From: Takakia lepidozioides
Taxonomy: Eukaryota > Plantae > Bryophyta
Direction: 5' to 3'
Assembly (NCBI GenBank): GCA_030704615.1
Contig: CM060731.1
Coordinates: 94,550,001 to 94,614,000 of the forward strand
Length of the DNA stretch: 64,000 nucleotides
Position numbers and translations under genes: made by a program
In this document: positions 1 through 55,954 of the stretch, one piece after another
Layout of the letters: each line of letters begins with the position of its first letter
How positions within the stretch are numbered: position 1 is the stretch's first letter
The notes under the pieces: model-generated
Told to the model about the DNA's origin: nothing
Database searches by the model: none
Seen by the model: the letters and a program-made list of their open reading frames with translations, nothing else

Positions 1-18
1 GAGGCAAGCCTCAAGAAA

Positions 19-270: not shown

Positions 271-433
271 TGCCCATTCCGGCTATGACACTTAGAACAC
301 ACTTGTATAGACGTGGCTTGCCACAAAATTTGCAATAAAATGTTGGATTTCAAGTCCACTGGTGCCACATTTCAACTTCACATGACCCTATTTCCGTGCC
401 TCCTAACCCTATTTCCGTGGACTCACAATGGTC

Positions 434-491
434 TGCTCATGCTTTTTTTTTTCCCGCTCATGCTCATGCCGCTCATGAAATAGCAGCCCCC
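434..491. repeat. Terminal inverted repeat of copy A with GCTCAT sub-repeats
   Basis: ctgctcatgc...gctcatgctcatgccgctcatgaaatagcagccccc; the same terminus occurs at 20699 and, inverted, at 23748. Confidence 0.8.
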
Positions 492-6862: not shown

Positions 6863-6864
6863 AG

Positions 6865-9603: not shown

Positions 9604-9996
9604 CGAAGACCGCACGAAGTTGGCAAGTGCGAGGTTCAATATAGCGACAAACCAAGGCTCACAGGCACCATGTAAGTGGATCTGCGGAATCCATCGACGA
9701 TTGGAAGTCGCACATTGAAGTGGAAAGTATTGTTTCAAGCTACATGCATGAAGGTGGGAGGTGTGATTCCATAGCCAGTAAGTATGACAATGATGGTCGA
9801 TTCGGCGACGAAATAACATCTCCTGACAGTTTCTCCTGAGGGTGGATCCAGCAGTATTCTCGGTGCAGACATGAACGTTCGCACTGACAGTGCTAGGACT
9901 GTTAGTTAAAACGGTCAGACAACCAAGTTGTGCTCATCAAGACAGGCCGCAATTGTGTTGTTTCGGAACAATGCAACCCATTCAGGCTCCGCATGC

Positions 9997-11650
9997 AGAA
10001 ATGAGGTTCCGCATTTTCCGTCTGGAGTGATACTTTCAATTGCTGTTCGACGGAAATACGGCGCCGCATTTCCGTTTTGCATCTTAGTCATGCACCAGTG
10101 CGACGGAAAACCGGCACCGAGTTTCCGTCCGGGGGAAACCTTTATACTCTCCACAACGGAAATACGGTAACGCATTTCCATCCAACAAGCACGGTATGTG
10201 AAGGTGGAATGGAAATGCGGTACCGCATTCCGTTTATGATTGAGAATCATGAACCACGAGAACTGAAATGCGGCACCGCATTTCCGTCCGAGTCGTACCT
10301 TCCGACATACCAGAACGGAAATGCGGCGCCCCATTTCCATTTTGTATCTGACGCATGGAGCTGAGGGAAAGAAATGCTGCATCGCATTTCCGTCCGGGTG
10401 AGACCTTCATACTCTCCAGAACGGAAATGCGGTACCGCATTTCCGTTCTGACTGAAAATCGTGAACCATCGGAACTGAAATGCGGCACCGCATTTCCGTT
10501 CAGGTGAGACCTTTATACTTTCCCGAACGGAAATGTGGCACGGCATTTCCGTTCATCAACTAAGGTATGTGAAGGTGGAACGGAAATGCGGTACCGCATT
10601 TCCGTTCAGATTGAAAATCATGAACCACGGGAACTGAAATGTTGTGCCGCATTTCCGTCCGAATCGCACCTTCCGACATACCAGATCGGAAATGTGGCGC
10701 CGCATTTCCGTTTTCTCTCTCAGGCATGGAGCGGAGGGACGAAAATTTTGCACCGCATTTCCGTCCGTTTGAGACCTTCATACTCTCCAGAACGGAAATG
10801 CGGTACCTCATTTCCGTTCTGACTGAACACCGTGAACCATCGGAACTGAAATGCGGCACCGCATTTCCATCCGAGTCGCACCTTCCGACATTCCAGAACG
10901 GGAATGCGGCGCCGCATTTCCGTTTTGTATTTGAGGCATGGAGCCGAGTGACGGAAATGCTGCAGCGCATTTCCGACTGGTTAAGACCTTCATACTCTCC
11001 AGAACGGAAATGCGGTACCGCATTTCCGTTCTGATTGAGAATTATGAACAACGGTAACTCAAATGCGGCACCGCATTTCCGTCCGAGTCGCACCTTCCGA
11101 CTTTCCAGAACAGAAATGCGGGGCCGCATTTCCATCCATGTGAGACCTTCAAACTTTCCAGACCGGAAATGCGGCACCACATTTCCGTTCAGGTGAGACC
11201 TTTATACTTTCCCGAACGGAAATGTGGCACGGCATTTCCGTTCATCAAGTAAGGTATGTGAAGGTGGAACGGAAATGCGGTACCACATTTCCGTCAGATT
11301 GAAAATCATGAACCACGGGAACTGAAATGTTGTGCCGCATTTCCGTCCGAATCGCACCTTTCGACATTCCAGAACGAAAATGCGGTGCCGCATTTCCCTT
11401 TTGTATCTCAGGCATGGAGCTGTGGGACGGAAATGCGGCACCGTATTTCCGTTCAACAACTAAGGTATGTGAAGTTGGAACGGAAATGCGGTGCCGCATT
11501 TTCTTCCAACAAGTACGAATGTGTAGCTTCGTGATGATACTTAACGGAAATGCGGCGCCGCATTTGCATTTTCACTCCAAGTCATCAGATGCTGGGACGG
11601 AAATGCCTTGAAATGTGAACACGTGGAGCAACGGAATTGCGGCACATGTC
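9997..11650. repeat. Phased array of about 30 copies of the 22-bp palindrome GGAAATGCGGCGCCGCATTTCC with ~31-bp variable spacers (53-bp period)
   Basis: Palindrome starts checked at 10052, 10105, 10158, 10211, 10317, 10423, 10529, 10582, 10688, 10794, 11006, 11165, 11218 and 11271, all multiples of 53 apart. The array lies between the divergent transposase and ParB-MTase genes. Confidence 0.93.
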
Positions 11651-11915
11651 TGCACTGTATCTGACTGAAGTGGCATGAAGGGGCGCGGCCTGACCGTTGG
11701 ATAATGATGTTTGTTTTTCGGACGGCAGGCGTACCCTGAACGATTCGAATTTCGTAATGACGCAAAGTCCACGAGGAGACACTTTCGTCCAACCCTTTCG
11801 AACCCAAGTGGTGCATCACCGCCGTTTCATCTTCTTTTGTCGTGTCTCTCAGTCACCCCTCTCGCGCCCTTTCCATCTGCACTCTTCGCCCCTTTTCCCT
11901 GTCTCTGTTCTTCTT

Positions 11916-14900
11916 ATGCTCGAACCTGAGAGGGAGGGAGTGCATGCACCAGAGAAGAGACATCATCGCAAGCTCCGAAAATTGTACTTTGGACGTAGGC
12001 CAATGCCAAAAGGGAGGAAGCAGATGCGTCTACAGGAGGAGATTGCCATCTCGCAGCATCAGGCCATGCAGGCAACCCAGCCACTAGTGAGAGCTCCGTG
12101 CTATCGGGATTCGCCAGCTGATCGAGCACCGAAAACCCGCCTCATTTTTCTTCTGCAATTCTTAGACTGTATGCTAAGAGACTTGAATGCAGAAGATGTT
12201 TGCATGCCTAACCGGAAAGGTGGACGTGCTGGAGGGATCGTAGGAATCCGAAGAGCTGTAGGCAGAGTCCGTGGAGCTAGCTGCAGCACGCACACCCAGC
12301 TGATCCACGAGCACGAGTCTTCCTGCCGGGCCTAGCCCTGTGCGTTTCAAGGACGCGGCTTCCAAGGGCAAGTCTTTGCAGTCCAAAGCCCCAGAGAGCG
12401 ACTTGCCTTCGAAGGTCATGGAGAATCGCCAACAGGGGTCAAGCCCTTCTCCAACAAAGACAAAGAAGAAGCAGCCCGTCCTTCAACTTGTTTTTGAACC
12501 GGACCAGGCCGTTTCCCCCCCACCCAGGCGAATGAACAGATTCAATTGCAGCAGACACCTTCACCTGCAAGAATGAGGAAGCACAAGGCAATCAGGGGGA
12601 GGGCGGAGCAGTCTCCTGCAAAACCGATTCCACGAGCTAAAGCCCAGTTCCTGCTTGATTTCCAGCCTGGTGATGTTGGGGGCGTCTCTGCTGCAGCGAA
12701 GGCAATGGGATCGACCGATTTCGTCGATGTGGTACGGGAGGAGGGTGCTGCCTCTCAACGTTTGCAGCAAGACCTGACCACCGTTGAGGAAGATCTTCAT
12801 AATACTGAAGGCCCGGAGGAGGCCTCTACAATTGCAGAATTGCCCGCAAAGATTCCCCAGAGTGCAGCTCCAGTTGGGGATGCTCCAGCTGCTCAGCCCC
12901 TACCGCCACTAGCAAAAATATCTCCGGAGGAATTCCAAAGTGCAGCGGATACAATGTTGGAGGAGACACATAGTAGCATTGGTAGAGTTCTGGGCAGCAG
13001 GGTATTCCAGCGGACTCTTCGAATCCCACTCTGTCACATGGTCTCCCTTCCCATCGTCAGGCAGACACTTCCCGGAGATGTGGATAAGCTCAAGTTCGCA
13101 TTTCGAGAGGGGTACCGTCTAGGTTCGCCAGCCTTCTACGTTTCCTTGAGAATGAGGACGGCGAATCTCGTGGACCCACTGTGGATGAATTGTCAACATG
13201 GGATACCCACTGGCACACTCGCAACAACGAATTTGAGGCAACACTGAAGGGTGATCCAGACTTCGGCCATATGTCGGGTAAAATGTTCTTTGTGTGGGAC
13301 GGGGAATCACCGACTTCTCGCCTTGTGGAGTACATCAAGCAGAACCATGCCAAACACATTGGCTGGCATTACATGGGGAGTGTGTCATCCTCAAGGTGAA
13401 GGCGGCAGACTCCTCCCGCTCAAGAATGCCATGGCAGACCTCAACTCGTAAGATACTCATACCCTCCCAAGCACGTTCGAAATGCGGTGCCGCATTTCGG
13501 TTTCCAATCTGTTTTGTTTCCGTCTCGTGGATTGAACTGGAGAGTGTGCCTTGCAGGGTCAATGAAATGCGTACGTGCATACCCACATGGCACATATGTT
13601 GTACAGGGTGAGGAAAACTGGTCTCACTGATCCGCACATGTTTGCGGAAATGCTGGAGCCCGAGCTCATTTTGAAAGCCGTGGCAAAAAACTGACCGGAC
13701 ATGGTATCGTCTCACTATGGATGGAATGGTGGAGGTGATATACGAAGTAAGTCGTCCTCCCATTTCCCTCTGCTCATCCTTCCCCAATTTCCAGTAATCT
13801 TTCCACTTGAATCGAATGTAACGCTTCTGCATGTTTTTGTTGGCAGTCAAACATCAAGCTGGATTGGCCCATGCCAAACGCTTCTTCATGGAAAGTGAGG
13901 GGCAGGTCAAAACGTTGCAGTCATTGACTGAGCACTTGAAGGAAGCCGGGGTCAAGTCCAGAACGAAATACAAGTCAAAGCTTGTGAAGCTGGTGGCCAT
14001 TGCAGATCCGGCACTTGGAAAGGATCATCCCCGAGATTGCAAAACACTATTCTCGGGCCATGCAGCCGACCATGCAGTTGGAGAAACTGCATCACCTCTC
14101 AACGGCATGTGTTGAAGCGAAAGAGAAGGTGATGTTTCAATGCACTGAAGTTCCTTCCTAGCAATAGCCACTCTTCTTCCTGCTCCTGACATTGGATCGG
14201 AAATGGCACGGTGGCTGTCGATCTGGAATGCATCGGAGAGTATAAGGACAATGTGGTCTTTTCCACTCGAAGTTTCGACCCTGCAGTGGATGTGTGGCTC
14301 AACCGCATGACTTGGTGGTTCCAGGTAATTCAAGGTACTTCCCCATATTTGCTTTTCTGAAAATGAATTCCTGAACTGCTACGTGACAATGATGTGGGGA
14401 ATGCAGGTAATGACGAATGCGAAGGGAGCAAGTCGTAATGCATACAAATTCGTTCGGCTTGTACGTCAAATGGGATGGAACACAAACATTGGAAGACTAC
14501 GTCACACGTTTCAGATGTGCGTACAAGGACAACCTCTTCGCCAGGGAGCTACAGACAGCAAGAAGGAGCGTGGAGTTTACACATCAGGAGGGAGCGGGAA
14601 AAGCTGTAATGTTTACAGGTGAAGCCCAGCTGTCCTTGTATGCAAAGCCTGGTTATGAGGTTTGTCTGGGAAATGCGGCACCGCATTTGCATTTTAAGTT
14701 TTTGGTTGCACTCTGCGGGTACGTTGGTCTCAACATTTGCTCACGCATGCTGACTCCCCTGCAGGTATATGAAATACGTGCTTCTTCAGACAGGGGCCCT
14801 GGCTCAAGAGCCCCCATTCTTCATGGCTTGGACCGTGGCAGGCCCAAGCTGTGTCTACACACCCGAGATGCAGAAACAATGGCATGCCGCGCATCTGGTT

Positions 14901-17092
14901 GGATGCCCGTGGTACCTAGACATGTCTGGCGGAATTGTTGACGAGTTTGAGAAAGAAATGCACACGCGAAAGGCAGAAGAGAAGAGAAAGGAAAGACGTG
15001 TCCCTGCTCGGCCAGAGTCGGCAAAGGAAGCTGCTGCTCTGGAACAATCCAGAAAGGCAGCTGAGATGGCACAGAAGACGGTGGATGCAGCTGTGCAGGC
15101 TCAACAGAAGGGGTCCAAGAAGCGGACTTGCCAGCAAGGAGCAGCAGTTGTGACACCCAAGAAAGAAGAAAGCAGAAAGAAAAAAGATAGTGCAGGTAGA
15201 GGGTGAGGAAGAGGATTCCGATGGAGACTTTGCAACCAGCCCACCCCCCGAGACGCAGCCAAAATCCCCTGTGCCCACCGTTGTCACAAGAGGGACGAGA
15301 ACTGGCTCGGCAAAGAAGGCACTCTTCAACCCCCCGGGGGGGCACCCTTTCGAGCCGGTGGAAATGAAGGGCCGAAAGTGGATCCGATACAGTAGTCCAG
15401 TGTGTGAATGAAAGTTTCTTGGCGGTTCGGATGGACGGGCAGCCAAGTTGGCATACATGAAGACCATGGAGGGTCTGGATGGGCAGAGCACTGAAGAAGG
15501 CGGCTGCCGAAGAGCCTTCCGACACCCCTGGGTTTCTGAAGATGGTCTCGTTCTTTGAGAGGGTGTGTGCAGACAAGGATTGCAGGAGGGGCGGAAATGC
15601 CACCGAGTGGTCTTGCGATATGATCATCTTGGATATTCCGGACGGAGAGCCTGTGGAAGGACTGCAAGCTTTGCCATCTTGGAACAGGTACTCGAGGACT
15701 TTTGGAAGAAAGGATTCGGGCTCACCCGCATGGTGTTGGACGACAGAGGCTGTGTGGTTGTCCTGGCGAGCAGAGGCAAAAACACACAGACAAGGAATTG
15801 CGAAGTGGACCCGCAAGAGCGCCGTCCCAATTCTGAAGAAGAAGTGGACGTGCATCAACACATGGGCCTTCGGTCGGAAGGGAAGAAGGTAATTACGACA
15901 TTGGCACTCGTCCTTTCATTTTCTTAGGAGTTTGAAATGCGGTGCCGCATTCGATTTCTAATCGTTCCCCACTGTGTATGCAGAGACGAAGCAGTTCGAT
16001 GCATACTGCTTTGTGAAGGAGAACTCCACCTTTGCTTTCCGGAAGGAGGGATTGTTGGTTGACCCGAACTGCGACCCCGTCGATTACGACGTCCTATTCA
16101 ACAACGTTCCCACGGAACTTCTCCTCATAGCCTCACTTCAACTGAACCCTGCGGTATTCACGGACTCGAGCCCTGCCTTCATTCAGACAATTATGGAGAC
16201 ATGCACTGACGTGGAGGGCACAGTGCTCGACCTCATCTGTGGGACAGGTATGCAGAATCTTGTTGTATGCTATTCTGCAAATTCTCGTTATGCTTTCATT
16301 CGCAACATCTGAAGGGCCATGTCATAATGTGTGGATGGCATTGTAACAGGTGCCTCAATGTGGGCTGGGCGGTTTTCCGACCACCTCTTTGCCTACGAGG
16401 AGGACACATCCGCCTGGGGATCCCATCTGGAAGGGCTGCAATGGAATGTGAAGGCTCCCATCGAAGCCAAGGACTCCTCGGATTCGTCGGAGTGGGAGGA
16501 AGAGACAGTGGACATTGATGCCGAGGAGAACCCGCAATACGAGTGAGTGCAAACATTGTAAGTTTGCAAAGCCTTCTGGGTGATTTTTTGTCAAACGCAT
16601 TTCCGGACTGTGGTTCTCATTGGTCTCATTGGTGATGTTATGTGCAGGATTCCAGGATCCGGGTCGAAAACTGTAGGGCCTACACTTCCTGCCAGGAAGA
16701 ATGTCCCGTTCTTTGCGAGGGCCGACTTCATGACGAGCCCGGTGAAGGACTACTCCTTCCTAGTAGCAGCTAAACTCCAAATAAACGATTAGACGATGGT
16801 GAGAATCCCAGTAAAGTAGAGCAGATTTTGGAGAGGGCTAGGGAGGACAGAAGGATAAGGAAAGAGTTGGCAAGCTGAGACAGGTAGACGGGTGCGAAAG
16901 TTCATATGTGATTCAGCGGATGAGAGCGATGCAGACAGGGAGGACGACGAGCCAACGGAGGTGAGATGGTCGGTTCCGCAAGGTGAAGATGGGATTTTCG
17001 AAAGCCTGGCCAACGAGCAGTCCGCTGGAGATGAGAAAGGCAATGACGGGGTGGAGGCGGAGCAGGACAGTCAAAGGACAGGACGACGATAG
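11916..17092 (+). pseudogene. Multi-exon ParB-like domain plus beta-class DNA amino-methyltransferase gene of element B (frameshifted)
   Basis: FFVWDG(+1)NHRLLA at ~13298-13320; DMIILDIPDG at ~15617-15646; LDDRGCVVVLA; FDAYCFVKE; SPAFIQTIMETCTDVEGTVLDLICGTG|ASMWAG...HLFAYEED across GT-AG intron 16248-16349. Collinear with the gene in C. Confidence 0.8.
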
Positions 17093-17246
17093 TGATGATT
17101 TTCAAGATTAATAGAATTTTAATGAACTCTCTGTACATTTAAATTCTATTCCAGAGTATATAAAGGAAATTCTCCCCGTCCTTCATGTCCCCTCTCCCAT
17201 GTGCTTCTCAACGACAACATCGTCCAAACCTGGTCCCTCCAAAATC

Positions 17247-18271
17247 TGAAATGCGGCACCGCATTTCAATGTCTGAACGGAAATGTGGCAACTGCAAAAA
17301 CCTCCTTTGGAAATGCGGCACCGCATTTCCAAAACCGGGGCAAGAACAATTTTCCGTTTCATGGTTTGGACATCAGAAACTGTTCGGACAAACGGAAATG
17401 CGGTGCCGCATTTCCGTTTCCGACACGGCAGTTTTGCCGATTGCCAGCTCCTTCCATGGAGGTAAATGGAAATGCGGAGGTCGAACATGGAAATGTGCCG
17501 CATTTACCTTTTGGAGATGGACATTTTTCCAACTGCAGACCCATCGACGGAAATGCGGCTCCCCATTCCATGATGCTAGACGGGAATGCGGCACCGCATT
17601 CCATTGTCCAATAAGAAATTTCGATGACGTACATGGAAATGCGGCGCCGCATTTCCAAAACGGACATCGTTGTTGTCCAATTCCAGACCCTTTGACGGAA
17701 ATGCGGCACCGCATTCCATCGTCCTATAAAAACATTGTCCTATAAAAACTTTCGATTGCCCAACATGAAAATGCGGCGCCGCATTTCCAAAACAGACATC
17801 GTTGTTTGTCCAATTCCAGACCCGTGTGGGCATTCAGGACGGAAATGCGGCACATTCCATTGTCCAATACGATCTTTGGGCGGACATGGAAATGCGGTGC
17901 CGCATTTCCAGAACGGACATCGTTGTTTGTCCAATTCCAGACCCTTCGACGGAAATGCGGCACCGCATTCCATTGTGCTCTCCGGAAATGTTGTGCCGCA
18001 TTTCATTGTCCGGTACGAAATTTCGATGACGGACATGGAAATGCGGTGCGCATTTCAAGTATGGACATGGACAAGCATTAGCGACTGGACATGCTCGGAC
18101 AATTCAAGGTCCAATATGGAAATGCGGCGCCGCATTTCAAATTCGAAGTATGGTAATGCCATGTCAGGAAATGAAATGTTGTACAGCATTTCCGTTACGA
18201 CGACAACGGAGGAAAGGGAGCTGCCAGAAATCGCTGCATGGAGAAAAATGAAATGCGGTGCCGAATTTCCG
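17247..18271. repeat. Second cluster (roughly 18 copies) of the B palindrome, irregular spacing
   Basis: Repeated GGAAATGCGG(CG/CA/TG)CCGCATTTCC, e.g. at 17309, 17394, 17635, 17697, 17888, 17951 and 18118. Confidence 0.88.
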
Positions 18272-18545
18272 AGCTTCGGCGTGTACATGTTTCCTTTTAC
18301 TCATACATGGATTTTCTTCACCTCAGGACTCTGATATCGCTGACTCTGGTATATTCATATGGACAGACACATTGTAAAATGAGACCTCAAATTGTAAACA
18401 GTGGGCCAATTACGGCAGTTCTTGAACACGATGAACACAAGCACACAAGTGAGGTAGTACGATGGGTTGTTTTATTGATCGAACACGGTGTCTCACATTT
18501 AGCAACTCCAGACAAATCTAAGCCCTTCCTCCTTCTACATGGGCG

Positions 18546-19170
18546 TCACCAAGTCGACGGAACTTCGATAGCCCTCAAAACAAGCTCATTACTGATGCGG
18601 CACCTCGAGGTAAACTGCAATGCGGTCGATCTGGTGCCCTTGGTGGAGCTGACGACAATGTCATGCCCATCAATCATACCACCATCATACATTGACAAGG
18701 TCACTGTGGGCCTCATGTGCCCGTGCGATTCGTCTTCGCAACTCAGCCGAATGTCTCCATACACTGGAAAAGCGGAGTGAACTCCACGAATATAGTTTTC
18801 CCCGGTGCCGTCCTCCCTGGTCCACTGGCAGCAGTTCCAGCGCCAAAGTGAGGCCGTGCGTGATCTGTCCGGCATCCCATTCCACCTTGGTATATCGAGG
18901 TCAACAATTTTCAGGACCCACGGACCGCATTGACCCTCGCCCTCACCTCGCTCAAAGCGGTAATAGCCCTCCAATACTCCATTGCGCGCAAAGACTCCCG
19001 CTTGATTCCAGAAGCGTCTGTGAAAACAGAGAGCCAGACAATGATGTCTCCTGATTCTGGTTTGAACATAGCATAATCGTGGCCATGATAAGGGCAGTCA
19101 GCAGGATTTCGGCGGCACGGCATCCTTGAAAAAGAGTAGCGGAGTACGCTCAATGACAGCAGCTCCCGGA
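18546..19170 (-). pseudogene. Unknown cargo protein, paralog 1 (inside element B)
   Basis: LRYSFSRMPCRRNPADCPY.G.DYAM...WRWNCCQWT...PVYGDIRL...YDGGMIDGHDIVV...ELVLRAIEVP, homologous to the + strand copy. Confidence 0.65.
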
Positions 19171-19589
19171 TGGAGGAGGCAGCAGCGTGGCTGGAAGAAA
19201 TTCAAGCAAACGCTGCAATTCCTCACAAACACTCCAGGGCACATTTAAATTTCCCCCCTACAGGAACCTGCACGGATGAAGATTGGCTGCTCCATGAATG
19301 TAGCCGTTTCAGTTTCCTTCCCTGCCATGCAAACTATGGGCAGTAAGTGCCAGGTGGGCCTATAGCCACTCGAGACGACGAAGTCCATCCCCCTTCGATG
19401 TAAATGCGGCGCCGAATTTCCATCCGGGGGATGGACTTCGGTGGCAGATTTCAAACTATACCCCGTGGATGAGAAAGAGGTATCGGTTCATCCACCGCTG
19501 GCGTGATGAACACGTTACACGATGATTGGTGGGTACGTGTGACCCAGATGCTCCATTATTGGAGCCCGCACTGCTCTTCCGCTTCTCAT

Positions 19590-20239
19590 CATTTCGAAAA
19601 TCTAAGGGCTTCGTTGCTGTCCGCAAGGTCATTGTCATCGGCATCAAAGACGTCCTCAGGTCCTCCTTTGCAAGGATGCCGTGCTTCCGGAACCGGGACG
19701 ACTGCCCTTATGGAGGCTTCGATTATGCAATGTATTCGGCCACATCGGGAGACATCGTTATCTGGTACACAGATTACACAGAAGATACTGGTTCGAATGT
19801 GGAAACATTGTCCGCTTTTGAGTATATCCCAGGCCAGTACGCCTTCGAGCGGGGTGACGATCTTGGTCTGAGGAGTCCGTGGCTCCTGCGCATCCTTGAT
19901 TCCGATTTTCCCAGCTACGACGGGGCACCCATGCAGAAGAATGCGCACTGCTATGCTGTTGCGGTGGAACTGCTGCCAGTGGACGTGGGTGGACTCCATC
20001 GGAGAGACTTATACTCCTGAAGGAGTGCGCTCCTCTTCTCCATTGTATGGGGACATTCGCATTGGTGTGGAGGACGAAAACGTGAAGCTTTCCATATTCG
20101 ATGGTGGTATGATTGAAGGGCACGACATTGTGGTGAACATCAACAGGGCGGTACAACGGCTGCAATCCAGTTTACCTGGAGGAGCCCGATGACTCATGAG
20201 CTAGTTCTCAGAGCAGTCGAAGTCCCATTGACAACGTGA
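19590..20239 (+). pseudogene. Unknown cargo protein, paralog 2 (inside element B)
   Basis: LRSSFARMPCFRNRDDCPYGGFDYAM...LRWNCCQWT...PLYGDIRI...FDGGMIEGHDIVV...ELVLRAVEVP, read across frameshifts. Confidence 0.65.
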
Positions 20240-20639
20240 CTTGTATTCAGAAGGCACAGGGCTAAATTTGTTTGCACAATCAGCACAGTAGACGTGCTTC
20301 AAATGCAATTCATGTGGATCAATAAAAACCCCATTGTGCCCTCTTTTTGTTCTATTCTGTATCCATCGTTCCCAGAATGCATCATTCCTCATTTCGTTTG
20401 GATTGGGAGTGTGGGTGGATTTTGCAAGTGGCTGGTAGGCTGAAATGGGCCCCCATTGTACAGAGCAGTACCACCCTACCATTCGCGAAACATTGCCTTT
20501 CAATATGTAATTCTAAAAAAACATTGCCGAACCTCCTTCATCGGGAGGTCCTTCTCCCCTATGACCGTGACACCCTAAACCCTATTCCCGCGGACACTCA
20601 TTTCCGGAAAATAGTCCTGCTCATGTTTTTTTCGACACT

Positions 20640-20699
20640 TACGACTCTGCTCATGGCTCATGCCGCTCATGGCTCATGGCTCATGAAATAGCAGCCCCC
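20640..20699. repeat. Right terminal inverted repeat of element B
   Basis: ctctgctcatggctcatgccgctcatggctcatggctcatgaaatagcagccccc. Confidence 0.8.
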
Positions 20700-23600: not shown

Positions 23601-23747
23601 GGTGATGTACTCTCTGATCTTAATGGTGTGAGAGGTCCAGATGATTCCCCTATGTCTATTCCTCTTTCCCAAAGATATGGATAATTAGCTTTCAGATAAC
23701 TTTCTCTTTTTGCTGAATATCTCTGGAGTCTAGCTTCTCTTTCATCA
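20700..23747 (-). mobile_element. Fragment of a different Ty3/gypsy retrotransposon (gag, zinc knuckles, aspartic protease), no LTRs visible
   Basis: Gag core DPDVHISQFEHMC...LFPCSL..KASEWY...QKKHETVEEY...WFVSGLRPEL; CTICKMDNHSTENC at ~22170-22210; protease IDGGSGVNIM...YSLLLGRPWL. Bounded by the termini of B and C. Confidence 0.85.
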
Positions 23748-23822
23748 GGGGGCTGCTATTTCATGAGCGGCATGAGCATGAGCGGCATGAGCATGAGCGG
23801 AAAAAAAAAAAGCATGAGCAGA
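23748..23822. repeat. Left TIR of element C with ATGAGC sub-repeats
   Basis: gggggctgctatttcatgagcggcatgagcatgagcggcatgagcatgagcgg. Confidence 0.82.
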
Positions 23823-23983
23823 CCATAGTGAGTCCACGGAAATAGGGTTAGGAGGCACGGAAATAGGGTCATGTGAAGTTGGAATGTGGCACCAGTGGAC
23901 TTGAAATCCAACATTTTATTGCAAATTTTGTGGCAAGCCACGTCTATACAAGTGTGTTCTAACTGTCATAGCCGGAATGGGCA

Positions 23984-26900: not shown

Positions 26901-29900
26901 GCAGCCGTTATGTACCTGTTACAGAAGGCGCATTGCTGCTCCGCGTTCGGCTGGTCGGTGAACTCGTGGCTCCGGCGAGCATCTGCTATCTCCCGAAAGA
27001 ATAGGTTGGTTTTGTTAGAGCAGAAAGTACCTGTCACATAGTCACGTAGCTCTCTGCTGCAGAATATCTCCATCTTGAACTGATGTGCTTGTGTGTCCAG
27101 CTGCTCTTGCGCATTCGTCGTCACCTGTGGAGATTGTCCATCAGATCGCTTTCCTCAAAAAATACAATGAATCACCCCCTACTAGAGTACAAGCCCAAAC
27201 GAAGCGTGGGGAAAGTACCTGAAACCACCATGTCATGCGGTTCATCCACATGTCGAATGTGGGGTCAGAGAGTTTGTCCGGTTTGGGGAAGCTCCACATG
27301 TCCCTGGTACTTTGGGGAACCATTCCAGATTTGGAGCCACCGGGTCTGTCCAACCACCAGCATATTCGTAAGCGCCAAACACCACAAAAAGGAGTTGTTG
27401 CCACCACAATTTGGTTAAGAATGTATCACCTTTTCTGTTGCATCACACAGGATGTGGCTAACGATGGAGCTTCTCCAATGTCATCGTGGGCTTCAGAGCG
27501 CGCAGAGTAGTGCTTTCCCCACCTCCACCAGAAAGTCGGCACCAAGGGCGGGATCAGCTATGGCCACGTACTTTACCATCCGCGACTTGTACTTTATGCG
27601 GGCCCTCACCTCCGCAGCTTTGACATACGATTCGAGTTCCGGGAGGGTTGGATTCTTCTCCTCTGACTCCATGTAGAACCTCCGCGCATGTGCCAAATCC
27701 TGCTGTATTTTCGTCTGTCAAAATGCGCACATAAGATTAGAGATCCTGCTCAACACACATTTCTTCTATTGGGGGAGGAGAGACAAATTAGCTCAACAAA
27801 ACTGTCAGGAGCTTTACCCGAAATATGTAGTCCACCATGGCGTCGACGCTCAGCCTATACCAGGTTCTGTCTGCCTTTGCCTCCGACTTGCGCAGGAGGT
27901 CGGCACTGAGGGAATTGGCAAACTCTTGCACCCCCTTGCTTCCCGACATCCTTCACTCGGAAGAGCATATGGGACAAGTTGGTGGCAATGAAGGCATTCT
28001 CAGTCACCCTGCAGTGCCACATTTCCATCAAACAATACTGAAATGGGAATTTTCATCATATATGAGGATTCGCAATGAAATGACTTCCAAAATTCAAAGT
28101 CCAAAAGCGAGAGGGGTTGTAGCTTACGAGTTGATGTCGGCCATTGCAGCTTTGAGAAGACTGCGATCTTTGGGCCCCGCAACCTTCAGCAACACAATCG
28201 ACGGCGAAATGCCAATCGAGATCGTTGGGGTGGGCTTGGGCAATGTGCTCCATCCATGCCAGGAGGCGATGATTGCCGTCCCACACGTAGAACATCTTAC
28301 CGGACATGTGCTGGAAAAGAGGATCACTAGCAATCGATCTCTCGAACTCCTCATTTCGCGTTTGCCAATGGGGACCCCATTTGTCCACCTCATCGGAAGT
28401 GTGGGCACGGGAAGCTCCGTGGTCGTTCTCTCAATGGAAACGTAAAAGGCGGCAGACCCCATTCGATATCCATCCCGGAAAGAGAATTTCAGCTTGTCGA
28501 TATCGCCTGGGAGGGCAGGTCTCACCACCTGCAATGACACCAAGCGGCAAAGGGAATTCGAAGCTTGGCCGGGTACACCATGCCCCCCAGCACCCCAATG
28601 TTGCTGTGGGTTGCCTCCAACATCTTGGCAGCGGCCAACTTCATATCCGCCTCAGACATGACGTCTGCTGCAGAGGGGTTTTCCGGCAGCCCACCAGGAC
28701 CGCCAAATCCAGCCTGTATGCTCCGGGTTTGGGGCCTGGGGATGTCCGGGAGGATGTCATCCTGGTCAGAAACCTCCATGTCGTCCTCCTCAACAGGGTC
28801 AGCCACCTGCGAAACCACCTCCAGCACTCTCGTCGTCTCTACTGCCCTCTCCCTGGCTTCACCTCGAACTTGCACAATCCGTGCTCTTTCAGGTGTTCTT
28901 TCCTCTCCTCCACTCTCCACCGTATGGGTAATTGCGGGGGCTGCTCTTGCCCCGATGGTCTAACCGGTGTGCTACTGCCTCTCTGTGGTGTCTTGTAGGG
29001 ATCCACCGTCTCTGTGGGTCCCTCGCTTACATTGGCATCTGTCATTTGGGCACCCCTGGCCTCTTCAGCTGCCTTTTGTCTTTCCTCCTGGCTAGCATTC
29101 TGTCTCGTCTGTTCTTTTGCCCTCTCTTTTGCCCTCTCACGGGCTTTCTGTTTCTTACTAGGGCTAGCAGCAGGGGAGCCCTCCAGGACGACCACCTTTG
29201 ATTGAGGCGAACTGACACCCTCGCGCGCACTGCTCACTCCCCCCTCCGCAGCCCGTGACTGCTCTCTCGCCGGGGATTGCATGTGCTTAGCTTTCTTCTT
29301 TTTCTTTGCGTGGGCGGGCCCTACTGCATGTGCATGAACAACCTCCATTGCCGGATCTGCTGTCCTCATGTCCTCACGCCCTTCACCTGCCATGCCGCCT
29401 GCACCAACCTCCCCAATGCCTACTCTGTCGTAATCTCGTTGCAAGTCCTCCCGTCCACCAACAAAAGGTTTAAGTTTGCCCTCTCGCCCCAAGTTGGGCG
29501 ATTCAAACATGCGATGAGTTGGAGCTGTCGATGATACCACCAGCGTGCCGGGCTCGTCGTCACTCTGTCATTGACAAAAATCGTGAAAACCAACATCGGT
29601 GCAAAAAGCAGCATCGCAACGAGAGCAGCGCAACCACCATAGCAACAATCATGTAGCAAAAATGAAAACATAACAAGTTTAGGAAGTATGGAGAGCCATG
29701 CAACAACAATGAAAACAAATGCAACCATTGCCTAAGAATGACATGCACAAGCAGCCTTCTCCAGAGCTGCCGGATTTGCACACGCATTGCAAACAATCTA
29801 AGGTTCACTCAACTATCTAAAGTTCACTCATACAGCAAAGCCAGGATGAAGATAAAAACAAAGCGAAAGCAAAAAAAAAATCGAAACAAACCGAAAGCAG

Positions 29901-30138
29901 AAGTGGCTTGCCTGAGAGTACTCGCTTCAGTTGGCGCAGGTTGTGAGCAAGACACTGGAATCTCCTGCTGGAGCTTCAGTTTGGCCATGCGAGAGATTGG
30001 CCGTCGTCCGTAGTACAGAGCTTTCAACTTCCGCCGCGGTCTGGATGTGAGGTCTCTCTCAGGAGAGCCACGCCCTTCAGGCGGCATAAGTCCAGCCAAA
30101 AAGATCTCCTTTTTTGGGGTACATGCCTGGAATACCAT
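23984..30138 (-). pseudogene. Multi-exon ParB-like domain plus beta-class DNA amino-methyltransferase gene of element C (some frameshifts)
   Basis: N-terminal RRKLKALYYGRRP; ParB box FYVWDGNHRLLAW (DGNHR at 28266-28280); DMILLDIPDG (DIPD at 25439-25450); LDDGGCVVVLA; DVLYNYVP; RSPAFIQTLMETCSDVQGRILDLTCGTG|ASMWAGTLSDRHVFAFEPD across GT-AG intron 24767-24848; acidic tail. Confidence 0.83.
26345..26850. repeat. Intronic tandem repeat (~90-97 bp units), each centred on GGCGCCGAATTTCC and flanked by inverted CTAAGTCCCT/AGGGACTTAG
   Basis: About 5 units of ctaagtccctgaacggcaatagg.ctagaactggaa..ggcgccgaatttcca.ttc.gggccagccagtctagggacttag, inside an intron of the C ParB-MTase gene. Confidence 0.85.
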
Positions 30139-30339
30139 GTTAAGCCAAGTTTAGCATGAGATTTAGGGTACGTGTCCAGGAAGCCATGCGTCGCCAGCCC
30201 GAATAATAACCGACGGCCGTCGACATTTATTGCCCAACTGCGCAATTAAATGTCGGATGAAGCCCTCCATGTCGGATGAAAATCGACGTAAACAGTCCCG
30301 GAATTTCCAACGTAGAGGTAATTCGGAGCGCTGCACGAT

Positions 30340-31801
30340 GGAATTCCGGCGCGGATTTCCATCCTGCAGGTAATTCGGAGCGCAGCAGGATGGATATCCG
30401 GCGCCGAATTTCCATCCGCGAGGAAGGGCGCGCTGGAAATTTTCCCTCATGCAGGTAATTCGGAAGCGCGCGGATGGAAATCCGGCGCCGAATTTCCATC
30501 CGCGGAGGTAGGCGGCGCTGGAAATTTCCCTCATGCAGGTAATTTCGGAAGCGCGCGGATGGAAATCCGGCGCCGAATTTCCATCCGCGGAGGTAGGGCG
30601 GCGGTGGAAATTTTCCCTCAGCAGGTAATTCGGAAGCGCGCGGATGGAAATCCGGCGCCGAATTTCCATCCGCGAGGTAGGGCGGCGGTGGGAAATTTCC
30701 GGCGGTGGAAATTTCGCAGGTAATTCGGATGGAAATCGGCGCCGAATTGCCAGGTAATTCGGAATCCGGCGCCGAATTTCCATCCGCCAAATTGCCGGCG
30801 CCGAATTGCAGGTAATTCGGAGGATGAATGGAAATTCGGCGCCGAATTTCCATCCAGCAGGTAAGGGGAAATTCGGCGCCGAATTTCCATCCCAGGTAGC
30901 TTTTGGGGAAATTCGGCGCCGAATTTCCATCCTGCAGGTAATTCGAAAAATGGATATTCGGCGCCGAATTTCCATTCGCCAAAATTACCTTCGTGCAGGG
31001 GTGCCCCCTTCCAGGTAATTGCACCCGATTGGGCGGAAGGTAATTCTCATCTGGAAATTACCTGCAGGTAATTTCCCTTAATGCTCCGATGGAAATTCGG
31101 CGCCGACCATTGCTGCGCGCCGAATTTCCATTCGGGATAATGGAAATTCGGCGCCGAATTTCCATTCATCCATTCGAATTACCTGCAGGATGGAAATTCG
31201 GGCCCTGCTGGGGAAATTCGGCGCCGAATCTCCATCCATCCGGGCTGGATGGAAATTCGGCGCCGAATGGGATTGCTGGATGGAAATTCGGCCCGAATTC
31301 CATTGCCAAATTCGGCGCCGTTTTCCCATCTGGGAGTTTTTATGTCGGCCAGTTTTCGGTCTGACCCCCCGACAAGACTTCCTTTGGGGGGGCCCGGATG
31401 GAAATTCGGCGCCGAATCTCCGTCCAGGGATGTTCTCTGTCGCACACTCGCCGGCCTCTGCGCCCGAGGCGACTTCATCCGGCGTCCCCTGTTCGATATT
31501 CGGTGCCGAATTTCCGTCCGGGGGTTGAAATGTGACGGCCAACTGCAGGCCACTCCCCCCTCCCCGACTGCATCCGAACCGCCCCGGATGGAAATTCGGC
31601 GCCGTTTTTCCATCTGGGGATGTTTTTATGCCGTCCAGTTTTCGGCCTGACCCCCCGACACGACTCCCTTTGGGGGCCCGGATGGAAATTCGGCGCCGAA
31701 TCTCCATCCAGGGGATGTTCTCTGTCGCACACACTCCGGCCTCTGCGCCCGAGGCGACTTCATCCGGGCTTCCTCTGTTGGATATTGGGTGCCGAATTTC
31801 C
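30340..31801. repeat. Array of about 25 copies of the 22-bp palindrome GGAAATTCGGCGCCGAATTTCC between the divergent genes of element C
   Basis: Copies at ~30391, 30476, 30561, 30646 (85-bp period), 30831, 30867, 30907, 30952, 31142, 31251, then 31400, 31495, 31590, 31684 (~95-bp period). Confidence 0.92.
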
Positions 31802-32107
31802 ATTCGGGGGTAGTAATGTGACGGCACGGTGCCGGCTTCTCCCCTTCAGCCGTCATCATCCGGACGGCCCCCCACTTTCTGACTGCATACCGTTGGCAGT
31901 TATTGCGCAAAGACCAGGGGCCGCATTCCGGAGACAAGGTTCATTAACACTCTGACTGTGGATTTTTGAGATAGTTGGCTCCCTGGATTTGGATCAGGCT
32001 TCGTCGCTCGGACAAATCGGCATCGCATTCATTCCCATCGCTGCACCCCCCTTCTACCAGGGAGCTTCCCCGCACGCCATCCTGGCAGTCTTGTGTGCAC
32101 ATCTCCC

Positions 32108-35100
32108 ATGGCGGAAAACCCGAGCGCTACAGTGTACTGCCCTCCTCACGAGCATAGAGCTTCATTTCCGTGCAGAGGGGACACCTGCCGGGTGATGGAG
32201 AAATATCTGTGCGTTCGATACCACCTGAAACCGGGGTCGGTTTTTTTGGAGGAGGAAAGGAAGGACTCAAACGGCCTTGTTGTCGAGAGTATTGTTGTGC
32301 TCCACGATGATTTCGGCGATGGCAGGGAATGGCGAGTTCCACCATCGGACAGCGTCATATACAGGGCTGTTGGGGACTTCATTTGCCCGCCAAATGCACC
32401 GTCTATCCTGGCCTTCCACGAAACAATCCGCGAATCAGAGAGTGGGTACCTCAAAGAGAGAAGTCCGCAACGAAGTAAATCCAGAGCCGAACCCATCCAT
32501 GAAGACGACCGAGAACCGGGTTGTTCACAACCTGTCCGACTCAGACGAGGTCATGGAAGTTCCGAGGTCGTCCTGGAGATCAGGCAAGTCCTCAATGGAC
32601 GTCAGTGGAGGAGGGAGTCATATTCCCAGCACGAGCACCGCAGTTCGATCTATTCTAGAAATTCTGCGAGGGCTTCACCTGGAGGGACACCGGTCGGAGC
32701 TGGCCGGGCTGGACTACAGCAAGTTCGCAATTAAATCGGTTACATGCCTTCCCGCCGACGTCGACGGTAATATCTTCTTTGAGTTCCCTCCTCGGGCGGA
32801 CTACTCGAGGGCGTCCGGAATGTTGACAGATATGGATAGAAAACATGACGGTCATCCTTGGTGCGTTACCAAAACCACCAGCATGAAGATGCTTGATGGT
32901 GTGCGGGTGCGCTACGTTGTTTGTGCGGGCGCGTTGCGGTTTTTCTCCCCAACTTGCTTCCACTTTAAATCCAGAGGTCACAGGAACGAGACCGATTGGA
33001 CAGGCACAGCTCACCAACCATTTCGAGCTCAGGAGAAGGTTCCGAACTCCACATTTAAGTGTGCGCATTGCAAAGAACCACCACACTGCATGTCTGTTTG
33101 TAATGCCAAGCAGTTCTATGTGTTGCACCGTTTCCCTGACCTCACCCGAGCTTGCATACACGTTGGTTCCCATTGTCACAAATTGGCGAGGGGGAACTCG
33201 CGGGAGGCTGCCCACGAAGCAGAGCAGCTCGTTCAGGAGGAGGTTAAGTTGAGACCGGGTGCCAAACCCAAACAGATACAGCTCCAAGCCGCCCATAAGA
33301 TGGCATTGGCCAGAATTATGTCGGAAGACGGCTCCGATAGAGTTCCTCTCGACGAGAAGGAAATGGAGGCATTGCTGGAGTCGGTGTCCCACGTATGTTC
33401 ACCGAATGTCCGAAACCACATTGTCTCATGCAAACAGAAAATTGGGCGTGGCTCGGATATGCACTCCATTCTGGAGGTGAAGCGACGATGTGGATATGAC
33501 TACATTCATGGAAGTAGGTTTCCAGGACAGGGACTGAGGCAGATCGTTGTTTCGTATTCAAAATGTCCACGTGTGGACCTGGCAGTGGCGTCGAACTGGT
33601 CGACAGGATGACGAGTGGGAACTTGTCAAACAGTTGGGTCATGTTCGACCATATCAAGCGAATTACAAATCACCAGTGGGTGACAATGGGTGCACATGTC
33701 TACGACACCCACTGCAGGATGCTAATGACAATTGCTATTTGTGAGATGAAAGGAGAGGACACACAATCGGAGATGCTTCTTTGGCAGGGAATAAACGAAC
33801 AGATGGCCAAGGCGGGATTGCCCCCTCCCAATTTCCGTGGTTTCATGGCGGACAACGCACAAGCAAATTGGGCTGCCATCCGAAGGGTGTACGGGCAAGA
33901 CCCCAATGTTCCCATGGAAGGCAAGGAGAGATCTTGTGGGTTCCATTTTCTGCAGAGCCTTTCGCAGTACACAACCAGGCTCGTGGCGCCAGATTTCAGA
34001 GAGGAGCACCGTTCCATGTGCCTTGCGTGGAAGCGCGCTCCCACCTTGGATGATGCAGAGACACAGTTTGCATGCATACGGGCTTGGTGGACATCGTCAG
34101 GTGCTGTAAGGAAATCAGACGAAGGAGCAATGGTCAGTTGGCTAGCATGGTGGCATTATCGTTTCCTCCAGTTCGGCGACTATATGCGGGAGGTGAGTTG
34201 CACGAATTCGCGTCCCGTTGGATATTATTCTTGGCCATATTTGTAACTTGCTTGTAACCTCAACATGTGCTTGTGCAGGAAATGTGTCTCGACTCCGACA
34301 CCGACATGCCCACGACAAACATGGCCGAATCAGTGCACTCTTCCTGGCGTGCCTCCTCTGCGGCGCATCTGGTGGACATCCTCACTGCCACAACGGAGGA
34401 CATTGTGAGGTCAATTATGCAGCAATGCAGGTACAACGAGTTCTTGAAAGGGAAACAGTGGGGCTTGGGGCCGGACAGGCAGGAAATGCTGATGCGGACT
34501 GCCTCCAGATCGAAGAATCCTCGGAAGTGGGCGGCGGCCTTGCGAGAGGGCCTTCGGGACACGCCATTGCTGCGAAGAGGCCAACATTTGGAAGGAGATG
34601 TTCATACCCGTCCAGTGAGACGAAGACTTGACGAGGCACCTGGCGGAGAAGAGGATTCATGGCGAGCTGACAAGAATATTCGCACGCTCCCTCGTGGTCC
34701 GGTGATGTTGTCCGAGGAGGTCTCGTCGAGCACCGGAAGTCCTGCACGTTCAAGATCGCCATCTCCTTTGAGCACAGGGCGCGTGCCCCGGCAACATAAC
34801 GAGCCATCTGTAGTAAAGCAATACAACATTCCCATTGTGGAGACAAGAGTGTCGGAGTCACAGTGGAGAATTGCGAGGACATTGCCGGCATTTCGAGGAA
34901 GTGTTGCGCCATCCGGGTGGATACGAGAGCACGCTGTGGTGAGATGATTCGGAGGAACCCACACGGTGCTGTACCTGCACCTTGTTTCAGCGGCAGATTT
35001 TTGACTCCCACATTTGCTCACGCACAACGCAGACATTTTGGTTCTGTAGGCACGACATAATGACCTGTGTATTTGGCAAGCCCAAGTACGGGATTCAGGG

Positions 35101-35682
35101 AATGCCGGAGCCTCCGGGCGTCTGGCCTGTTGCACCGGGTTGCAGCCTCTCTCAGAATGAGGCGGATGCTCTATCTGCAGCAGGATTTCGAATGGTGCAA
35201 CGCACAGACATCCCGGCCCACGCATTTCCGGTTCCTCAGACCCAGCCATTGCAGACTGCTCGGTCCAGTAGAGACGGATTGGACAATTCTGCACATCCCA
35301 CAATGCGATTCGGAAGAGTGAAGAGACGACACCCTCCCCAACAAGTTGAATGAGACTCGGATTGCCAATGCTCTTGGGATGGCTTGCACTATTCAGAGCT
35401 CCGTGGACGTACCCCCACCCGGCCTTGGGCGTGTGTATCGGATGGCAACGGCCGGCTCGGCTGTACGCGACGATGTATACACAATTACGATTGGAGTGGA
35501 GCCGACTTGCAACTGTACGGACTTCTCGTTGATGGAAGCAAAGAAGGGTTCGAAGTATTATCCGTGCAAGCATCTGTATTACATTTAGGATGAACGTGAC
35601 TATTGATGACTTTATTCATGCACCGGCGTTGAGCGTGAACGAGCTGCACAAACTCCTCCTTAGGGATTCCAGAAATCATTGA
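32108..35682 (+). pseudogene. Mutator-like transposase of element C: GCM-like zinc domain, DDE core and C-terminal SWIM finger (a few frameshifts, one intron ~34193-34278)
   Basis: DGHPWCVTKT..YVVCAGAL..CAHC..C..HVGSHCH; WVMFDHIKR (D1); FRGFMADNAQA (D2); SCGFH (CxxH); TTNMAESVHS (E); SWIM YTITIGVEPTCNCTDF...PCKHLYYI. Confidence 0.88.
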
Positions 35683-35839
35683 TGGGGCAAACGGAATCCT
35701 CCATATGGATATTTTCAAATGCATTTTGCTGTATCAGACTTTTTTTTTGCAGTGTAATGAAATGCACCCCAAAACTCCTGGAATGAGGCAATATTCCATT
35801 CAAACTGAGATCCAACAGAAGCAGTTGTGGGGCCATTTC

Positions 35840-36200
35840 TGGAAAAATGGCGCCGAATTTCTCTTTTTGGGGCCGAAAACTCGCTAAGTCCAACATGCAC
35901 TGGTACCTGTGTTTGGGAAAATGGCGCCGAATTTCTCTTTTTGGGCCGAAAACTGGCTAAGTCCCAACATGCACTGGTACCGTGTCTGGAAAAATGGCGC
36001 CGAATTTCTCTTTTTTGGGCCGAAAACTGGCTAAGTCCGAACATGCACTGGAAAAATGGCGCCGAATTACCTGTCATGAGGGGACCTATAGCCGCGGAAT
36101 TCGGCACCATTTTTCGCCAGAGAGACCTATTGCCGCGAAATACGTCGCCGTTTTTTCAGGTTACGGACCCTATTACCGCGAAATTCGGCGCCATATTTGC
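35840..36200. repeat. Subterminal cluster of C-type motif variants (GGAAAAATGGCGCCGAATTTC), ~70-bp units
   Basis: Repeated ggaaaaatggcgccgaatttctcttttt.ggccgaaaact.gctaagtcc. Confidence 0.85.
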
Positions 36201-36391
36201 ACATGTCGCTGGGAATTGGCATGAGCGGAAGACGAAATTTCATGAGCACAACTGTCAAAAGTGCAATTTTCCCTTCAAGGGGCCGAATAATATATTTGTT
36301 TTTCCTGACACATTGCATTAAATTATTGTTTTTTATTGTTTTTTATTTTCGAAATTTGTACTTCTGCTCATGAAAACCGATTGTGTTACTA

Positions 36392-36431
36392 CTCTGCTCA
36401 TGCCGCTCATGCTCATGAAATAGCAAACCTC
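36392..36431. repeat. Right TIR of element C
   Basis: ctctgctcatgccgctcatgctcatgaaatagcaaacctc, inverse of the left end. Confidence 0.8.
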
Positions 36432-36984
36432 CACGGAAGGACCGAATGGTGGCCTTCAGAGACATTGCCAACCCAACCTTGGTCCTATTAACTGTTGTTT
36501 GTTTCTTGCGGTTGTACGCCTTCTTCCACCTGGTTTTTGGGTAATAGCCACGATCTTGAACTGTGTCGAACGAAGCTTCACACTCTACAACCACATGGGA
36601 TTCAGGAACATCATCCGGGGAACAAGTCTGAAGCCCGCGGCCGACAAACAGTTCACTTCATCCCGGGTCAAATTTGTCCCCACCATCTCCGGCCATACAT
36701 GGGATGGATCTGGCCTGTCCTTCACATCCTTGTGAATCCTTCCCCAAACACACTGCTAAATGTCATCTGCACAGAACCAGAACTCCTGTATCTTACCACT
36801 TTCAAAGAATGGAGGCTGGAAAATTCCCTCATAGCGGGGAGGAACTCCCCCGAATTTGGCACTGCGAATAGGTTTTTTCCAAGGCTGCCCGCTGTCCACC
36901 CGGATAGCCCAATAGTGGGCCCGATATACTTCGCTTGTCCTTGCAATATGCCATATAGCTATGGACACAAGTTTAGGGACAGGA

Positions 36985-37600
36985 TGGGAAGTGTGTGCCG
37001 ACTTTCCAATGTCGGCCTGGGTAGTCTGTGCCGACTTCCCGAACCTTGAGTGGGAAGTCGGCACAGACTTCTGAGAGTCGGCACCGACTCTTGCGGTACA
37101 ATGTGACCCGGGGCAGGATGGTGGTGTTCTATTTGGGAAGTCGGCATAGACTTGCCAAAGTAGGCAATGGGACGTATGCATTCAGTAATGTAAGATGTCA
37201 TTAAAAGACATTTGAGTTGACGGTGCTGCCTTGTGCTTACAGGGGTTGAGCTTGAAGGAGGATGTGGATATGCCAAATGTGAACATGTCAGAGTCGGTCC
37301 ATGCTACCACTCGAGCGCTTCTGCAGACATCTGGATATCGGAAGTTCTTGAGGGGAGGGCATAAGGGAGTTGGCCCCAAACCGGGAGGAACTACTGTTGC
37401 GCGCAGTGTGAAGGTTGAATGATCCCACGAAATGGGGGGAGGCCATAAAGTCATGCGTTGTGGGGACACCGTTGCACAGCCGCGCCGATCGTTTGGAAGG
37501 TGATCTTGTGACAAAGACCACAAAGCAGAAGATAGTACTTTGCGACCTTCAAGAGGACAAAGAAGAACACTCTTGGAGGGCAGACATGAACCTGAAGATA
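36985..37600 (+). pseudogene. Relic D: intron end plus exon 2 of a third, more diverged transposase of the same family
   Basis: Acceptor cttacag|GLSLKEDVDMPNVNMSESVH...YRKFLRGGHKGVGP...NDPTKW...TPLHSRADRLEGD...EEHSWRAD aligns with C exon 2 (DTDMPTTNMAESVH...YNEFLKGKQWGLGP...NPRKW...TPLLRRGQHLEGD...EEDSWRAD). Confidence 0.78.
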
Positions 37601-55953: not shown

Positions 55954-55954
55954 C

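Follow-up and report, generated by a model that had tools for sequence, protein, structure and literature searches.

Subfamily-specific 22-bp palindromes in Mutator-like transposons of Takakia lepidozioides: a candidate self-recognition code

What reads a palindrome that a transposon repeats dozens of times, between its genes and within their introns, and never in an exon? The question is raised by 64,000 nucleotides of the bryophyte Takakia lepidozioides (NCBI GenBank assembly GCA_030704615.1, contig CM060731.1, positions 94,550,001 to 94,614,000 of the forward strand; the window, below). It is about 50% GC plant DNA with introns, mostly nested transposons, and comparison of the window with itself brings out two related elements, B and C, in opposite orientation. 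In each, a transposase and a multi-exon accessory gene are divergently transcribed, with a repeat array between them. Each also has its own version of a 22-bp palindrome, as does a relic, D. The palindrome is a real and conserved feature. I propose that it serves as a self-recognition code like that of VANC in Arabidopsis VANDAL elements, read by the subfamily's own accessory protein as a dimer, and judging from the sequence I hold this to be somewhat better than an even bet (roughly 0.55).

Where the palindromes lie and how they vary

The B motif is GGAAATG-CGGCGCCG-CATTTCC and the C motif GGAAATT-CGGCGCCG-AATTTCC, both 22 bp long and different by 2 bp. Counting non-overlapping sites within 4 mismatches of either motif gives 70 in the window, 44 in B, 26 in C and none elsewhere. 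At 3 mismatches or fewer, 48 and 31 sites were observed against none in ten Markov shuffles. Not one of the 70 is exonic, and exon intervals, drawn from B-C protein homology, span 58% of element bases; clustering of the sites makes this exon-avoidance test worth about ten independent places. The first-pass annotation of this DNA had claimed that B, C and D each have a 22-bp palindrome of their own, which is confirmed at the positions given in Table 1, and that the sites keep to non-coding element DNA and away from the retrotransposons and the host gene, which holds for every B- and C-type site.

It had also claimed a core common to all and arms that change symmetrically, and these claims survive in part. 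The core is shared as a consensus. The exact CGGCGCCG is found in just 7 of 44 B sites, among which CGGCACCG is the commonest core, in 16 of 26 C sites and in no D site; in D, a transversion has changed core position 7 or its mirror in three of the four main copies. One clade of relatives, described below, differs altogether. The arm letters do segregate by element. Diagnostic positions 7 and 16 are G/C in 38/44 B sites and 0/26 C sites, and T/A in 13/26 C sites and 0/44 B sites. Symmetry is less general: many C sites have only one good arm (TGGAATAT-GGCGCCGAATTTCC, GGAAAAAT-GGCGCCGAATTTCT), and at two sites in B (18249 and 19400) the left arm is of B type and the right arm of C type. The intergenic array of C holds, among its main palindromes, about 13 half-sites of a second motif, GCAGGTAATT (30366-31186), which once forms a perfect 22-bp palindrome, GAAATTA-CCTGCAGG-TAATTTC, at 31054-31075.

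Then there is the evidence of constraint. In the B intergenic array, where 26 of 29 spacings are exactly 53 bp, motif columns of the 30 units are 89% conserved and spacer columns 49%. In B sites, 40 of 88 cytosines of the central CpG have undergone transitions, as have 8 of 176 in the outer CpGs; for the sites beyond the 53-bp array these counts are 11/32 and 1/64. Such a pattern would be expected if protein contacted the two half-sites and left the centre free, though array copies are not independent. C sites have transitions at 2/52 central and 8/104 outer positions. Every core base pair includes a cytosine in a CG or CHG context, and so the core is a target for host methylation. Observed/expected CpG reaches 1.24-1.34 in the arrays, compared with 0.66-0.86 for the element genes and 0.18 for an adjacent old gypsy piece. 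Spacings of up to 140 bp take 27 distinct values, and these are biased towards whole helical turns of 10.5 bp (mean cosine 0.36, p about 0.006). The spacers of the B array are also enriched in ACCTTC, with 11 of the window's 50 occurrences and 1.2 expected.

More distant relatives were sought by scanning metagenome contigs with the alignment of the accessory protein's ParB-like domain. The scan gave 17 loci of 29-41% GC, all decayed and several on short contigs; viral contigs yielded no relative. One locus, L004 (with its duplicate L003), keeps the layout of B and C, a minus-strand transposase followed by an accessory gene with the middle and methyltransferase (MTase) exons. It shares with L005, L009 and L012 a fourth palindrome, CAACTTT-N8-AAAGTTG. 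Across 16 loci (L003 dropped), these two arms are paired 22 times with an 8-nt spacer and 0-6 times for each of the lengths 4-7 and 9-12 nt; of the 22 spacers, 16 can be derived from CGGCGCCG purely by C-to-T/G-to-A changes (deamination). The sites lie between transposase and accessory gene; they also occur immediately upstream of the MTase exon, where their period is 51 bp. In a tree of 17 rows (L003, L009, L010, L011, L014, L016 and L017 left out) the L004-type clade and the B and C proteins fall on opposite sides of the deepest supported split (98/97). The fourth palindrome offers independent support for the notion of the same core with new symmetric arms.

Those four loci have a further motif, GGAGCT-N4-AGCTCC. 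Since C, too, has a second motif, each element may carry two motif types. Either this motif or a related one, GGGGAGC-N4-GCTCCCC, lies 5' of the accessory gene in L005 (5224-6081), L012 (78-489), L001 (197-795) and L002 (129-265). Non-palindromic tandem arrays, with 42-bp and 33/17-bp periods, stand beside or inside the accessory gene in L013 (6478-7968), L007 (2404-2683) and L011 (1448-1718). The first-pass annotation expected motif and protein to co-evolve. Motif groups do match clades on the tree, but inheritance among kin would produce the same match, which is therefore not in itself proof of co-evolution.

Taken together, the sites are conserved, non-coding, subfamily-specific and recurrent, which supports the view that they are constrained binding sites for a dimeric protein encoded by the element. 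To that extent the earlier claim of cognate sites stands. The candidate binders are considered in the next section.

What might read the palindromes

The accessory protein was earlier taken to be a fusion of ParB and MTase. The second half of that description stands as a fold. The C-terminal domain matches beta-class amino-MTases over 187 columns (HHalign 94%, E 9e-8, 8 known enzymes), with a score of 57 where the best of 40 shuffles reached 20. It has the beta-class motif order, IV...X-I, and motif I (LDLxCGTG), which binds S-adenosylmethionine (SAM), is intact in B and C. A homologue, P0016, gives weak matches to PF01555 (E 0.06) and to a PHROG methyltransferase. In one tblastn search, at the level of E 5-9, the stretch of motifs X-I accounts for 9 of the 10 rows, and two of these nine are annotated as DNA methylases. 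A fern gene model, P0018 from Adiantum nelumboides, belongs to the same family; the AlphaFold model of the MTase domain, part of P0018, is poor (predicted local distance difference test, pLDDT, 40) and Foldseek found no match to it.

Does the domain methylate? In DPPY, the usual catalytic motif IV, the aromatic residue stacks on the flipped base. Here both B and C read DIPD at motif IV, outside the pattern (D/S/N)PP(Y/F/W). Most relatives have D-x-P-(S/T/N), and only two aligned homologues (DLPF) keep the aromatic. Its loss makes catalysis doubtful, and a role in binding SAM or DNA is more probable for the domain than one in writing a mark.

The ParB half is left with hints at the level of motifs, not a fold. 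The N-terminal domain contains DGNHRLxA and matches a ParB-like family (phrog_1033) and DUF1015 weakly, each at E 0.11; in a ParB-like hmmsearch 23 rows were reported, of which the first 10 all come from forward and none from reversed sequences, with scores no higher than 6 bits. A DUF3723 cluster appears in the Atlas as a look-alike of this domain (score 0.95, 78% of members), a lead only, without alignment. Helices are predicted after the domain, with no match to a helix-turn-helix (HTH) family. Pieces of the accessory protein matched no Pfam family at E 0.1; PDB sequence searches yielded nothing at E below 0.2, a search for a long ParB fusion homologue found none, and tblastn against phages and plasmids returned only rows of E 5-9.

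The other proteins of the elements are the transposase and, in B, a third gene. The transposase has a SWIM finger (PF04434, E 9e-5, over the curated cut-off) and, by eye, acidic motifs and CGFH, which would suit a DDE transposase with a CxxH motif; no Pfam Mutator-like element (MULE) family matched. It is for the SWIM finger, the terminal inverted repeats (TIRs) and the motifs seen by eye that the elements are labelled Mutator-like. A search for transposase homologues found none, and the Atlas gave only weak, uninformative rows. The third gene matches nothing in Pfam, PHROGs or the related loci. Its two copies flank a 62-bp inverted repeat (19379-19440) centred on the hybrid site at 19400. C lacks this gene, which therefore cannot serve as the general reader of the palindromes.

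The accessory protein is preferred as reader for these reasons. B and C have their termini and subterminal GCTCATG repeats in common, and these offer the transposase sites of its own. The palindromes, in contrast, lie mostly inside the elements, are not the same in B as in C and occur in introns of the accessory gene. Finally, the accessory protein has diverged more than the transposase, its blocks being 40-72% identical between B and C and those of the transposase 65-78%. If the accessory protein is the reader, then a dimer sitting on the palindromes of its own subfamily would keep those copies from being silenced. Each half-site (GGAAATGCGG in B, GGAAATTCGG in C) would be read by one subunit, leaving the central CpG without protein contact. 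Tandem amplification would raise the density of sites and with it specificity, and spacings near whole helical turns would favour cooperative loading. The bound protein might then shield the core or demethylate it, as VANC does.

Several findings weigh against this proposal. The profile test for ParB gave an HHalign score of 15 where shuffled sequences reached 17 (9 known ParB-like proteins), and it did not rise above the shuffles even with a 44-column insert removed. The AlphaFold model of the ParB-like domain (P0002) has a pLDDT of 49 and no Foldseek match, and searches of the accessory protein brought up no DNA-binding module. The clade of L001, L002 and L014-L017 has the different palindrome, GGGGAGC-N4-GCTCCCC, and the idea that every relative has the same core is rejected on that account. 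The available contig DNA of L006, L007, L008, L010, L011 and L013 holds no such palindrome. The C spacings of 37-45 bp and the 51-bp period of L004/L005 are off phase, and the shared ancestry of array copies inflates the statistics of conservation and phasing. Moreover, a transposase can do both jobs by itself: that of AtMu1 binds its family at the TIRs and hypomethylates it (bioRxiv 10.64898/2026.08.24.746577).

Could the transposase, then, be the reader? Its N-terminal Cys/His zinc domain might bind the palindromes, in self-activation or in joining distant parts of the element, with the accessory protein recruited or given over to another job. That region is GCM-like by eye, and the B half-site ATGCGG resembles the GCM site, ATGCGGGT, but Pfam, PDB and Atlas searches detected no GCM homology. 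Some arrays are subterminal, and as described in passages on other elements, MULE transposases have WRKY-GCM1-type DNA-binding domains (PMC1702500) and that of AtMu1 binds and hypomethylates its own family (bioRxiv 10.64898/2026.08.24.746577). That preprint places the binding of AtMu1 and TnpA at termini, however, whereas most palindromes are internal or intronic, and a separate set of terminal repeats is already common to B and C. I regard a transposase reader as unlikely, but as the most serious rival to the proposal. Conceivably, too, the accessory protein is catalytically active and marks the palindromes as an N4-cytosine or N6-adenine MTase, the mark either blocking host 5-methylcytosine (5mC) or meaning 'self'. 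This would be a special case of the proposal made here, its share counted within the figure given above. The motif order, the intact LDLxCGTG and a core that is all CG/CHG suit it, as does the use of prokaryote-type N4-cytosine MTases by Marchantia in the relevant part of bioRxiv 10.1101/2021.02.12.428880; with DIPD in both elements and the aromatic rare among relatives, it is quite unlikely. A captured prokaryotic module of ParB and amino-MTase, loading as a parS-like clamp on the palindromes of its own subfamily, spreading along the element, writing N4-methylcytosine or N6-methyladenine (4mC/6mA) at the core or close to it and so overriding host 5mC silencing, is a reading that I regard as distinctly improbable.

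The remaining possibilities dispense with a cognate element protein. The palindromes may be host transcription factor sites or hairpins, amplified in tandem. GGCGCC flanked by A/T runs looks like E2F-type sites, and symmetric changes in the arms fit a stem as well as a dimer. A host factor, though, would have no use for arms that differ between B and C when both share a genome, and a hairpin would require complementarity, while here the arm sequence itself is conserved and lone half-sites and one-armed sites are common; this view, too, strikes me as improbable. Or an ancestral palindrome may have been amplified by slippage and do nothing at all, a neutral, satellite-like expansion. The higher-order repeats of the arrays and the sharing of motifs among kin by descent are just what that predicts. 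It does not account for spacers that diverge around a motif that does not, for the same motif in unrelated repeat units (53, 62, 74, 85 and 94 bp) and in single intronic copies, or for a core that persists across a deep protein split, and is very improbable indeed.

The elements and their surroundings

Four element ends share GGGGGCTGCTATTTCATGAG (GAGGTTTGCTATTTCATGAG at one of them) followed by 4-6 GCTCATG repeats, the TIRs themselves being short and imperfect. It is these shared ends that define C, the right end of B and the copy A (Table 1). The 8-11-bp target-site duplication of Mutator elements was looked for around C and not seen: the flanks of C do not match, in a nested and rearranged locus. 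Relic pieces of a transposase of this family lie on either side of D, which makes it a fair third subfamily, though one without an accessory gene; as an intact element it is rejected. The second such piece lies at 37237-37317 on the plus strand, opposite to the D exon, and just after it comes a non-LTR-like fragment, 37300-39100.

Table 1. Features of the elements, in window coordinates
Feature	Position	Strand	Remarks
Element A end	1..491	+	98.5% identical to C accessory-gene end; inserted in B transposase
B transposase remainder	~492-632		separated from main part by long terminal repeat (LTR) retrotransposon 633-7595
Element B, main part	7596..20699		left end off-window
B transposase 5' part	7596..9610	-	Cys/His-rich N-terminal and catalytic regions; frameshifted
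B intergenic array	9997..11567		30 in-register copies, 53-bp period; higher-order repeats up to 371 bp
B accessory gene	11930..17090	+	frameshifted in window copy
B putative ParB-like domain	12900-13450		followed by helical and middle regions
Single intronic B site	13478..13499		in GT..AG intron
Single intronic B site	14669..14690		in GT..AG intron corresponding to that of the C intronic array
B beta-class amino-MTase-like domain	15600-16480
Single intronic B site, degenerate	15933..15954		in GT..AG intron
Second B array	17247..18270		13 full sites and half-sites
Third gene	18545..20240		two divergent copies (66% DNA identity); B only
B right terminus	20560..20699	-	GGGGGCTGCTATTTCATGAG end with 6 GCTCATG repeats
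Element C, complete	23748..36431		by terminal repeats and depth drop
C accessory gene	24000..30085	-	domain order as in B
C intronic array	26382..26850		93-96-bp period, 6 sites
C intergenic array	30340..31801		85- and 94-96-bp periods, interleaved with second motif GCAGGTAATT
C transposase	32090..35588	+	C-terminal SWIM finger
C subterminal array	35841..36200		74-bp period, asymmetric sites
Relic D transposase exon	36615..36788	-	47% identical to C, tblastx E 2e-15
D palindromes	36986..37156		four copies at 36986, 37019, 37052, 37135; shorter one 37074-37091

Sequencing depth was surveyed in the contigs of 4 of 15 listed runs. Across C, the contigs of run X3 add up to a depth of 92,000-774,000, and just past 36431 to one of 199-321, a fall of about 1000-fold; single-locus contigs beyond that point have a depth of 62-64. 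Contigs of run X8 have another flank at 36431, and contig depth is high throughout the main part of B. B and C are clearly high-copy families and D is not, although summed depth is no copy number. Several frameshifts of the window copies coincide with indels in many contigs, so copies with open frames likely exist.

The window holds other mobile DNA as well. A gypsy-type LTR retrotransposon is represented by three related copies or fragments, at 633-7595 (LTRs 96% identical; this copy interrupts the B transposase), 54815-55956 and 57858-64000, and a CpG-depleted gypsy gag-protease fragment fills 20700-23747, between the facing ends of B and C. At 41694-44312 there is an intact-looking hAT-derived (DUF659) host gene with two long exons, and at 55960-57850 an AT-rich, diverged repeat block with units of about 350-550 bp and short CATCAAAT and GATTAAC repeats.

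What the family would mean, and how it compares with known systems

Sequence-specific anti-silencing by transposons has so far been mainly an Arabidopsis matter (VANC, TnpA, AtMu1). The Takakia family, whose protein also occurs in a fern, points to an independent solution built on a prokaryote-type MTase fold. If the proposal is right, it would be a new way for a transposon to recognize its own copies and evade silencing. With two high-copy subfamilies side by side, a difference of 2 bp makes cognate specificity directly testable. Were the enzyme active, a transposon-written base modification would be added to plant epigenetics; were it inactive, an MTase fold would have been reused as a shield against silencing. 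Capture of a ParB-MTase module, if true, would mean an epigenetic mark private to the transposon, with an address code for each subfamily.

The published record offers partial parallels. Eukaryotes have acquired amino-MTases in chlorophyte, haptophyte, fungal and DIRS1 cases, and the main-text passages of that survey (PMC4738411) include no land-plant Mutator element with such an enzyme, though its supplement could list such a clade. Among the papers listed by full-text searches of a collection with few subscription papers, no title or opening of an abstract describes a plant Mutator element with a ParB or amino-MTase gene. In fungal Starships DUF3723 is conserved mobile-element cargo, at least in the portion of bioRxiv 10.1101/2021.12.13.472469 drawn on here; the class of element is unrelated. 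The accessory protein resembles beta-class N6A/N4C MTases (PF01555) in its motif order and in its profile match to YhdJ and phage enzymes, and differs from them, including the phage enzymes of ParB-terminase loci, in having DIPD for DPPY.

Bacterial ParB/parS is alike in its palindromic site, and the GNHRLxA found here matches GxxRxxA, the ParB motif pattern. It differs in that here there are dozens of sites per element with no evident role in segregation, the ParB fold and HTH are only putative, and the homologous coding blocks of the elements include no ParA partner. 'parS-like' is an analogy, not a membership. Spm/TnpA and AtMu1 share with this family clustered, family-specific motifs bound by an element protein, with hypomethylation; there, in the passages concerned, binding is terminal and the binder is the transposase or derived from one (bioRxiv 10.64898/2026.08.24.746577).

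The closest likeness is to VANDAL/VANC, and the first-pass annotation's analogy fits in detail: a Mutator-type element, an accessory gene beside the transposase and a subfamily-specific motif in non-coding tandem repeats, which for VANC motifs accumulate in introns and intergenic DNA, as the pertinent passages of PMC5735166 have it. Those passages also bring out a difference, for the VANC21 motif is 9 bp long and in one orientation, while the motifs here are 22-bp palindromes with a deeply conserved core. The accessory protein, moreover, has an amino-MTase fold, a distinction drawn by Pfam and fold rather than by direct alignment to VANC. By the features compared, the family falls outside both VANDAL/VANC and ParABS, and its sequence describes what would be a VANC-type code with an unusual protein.

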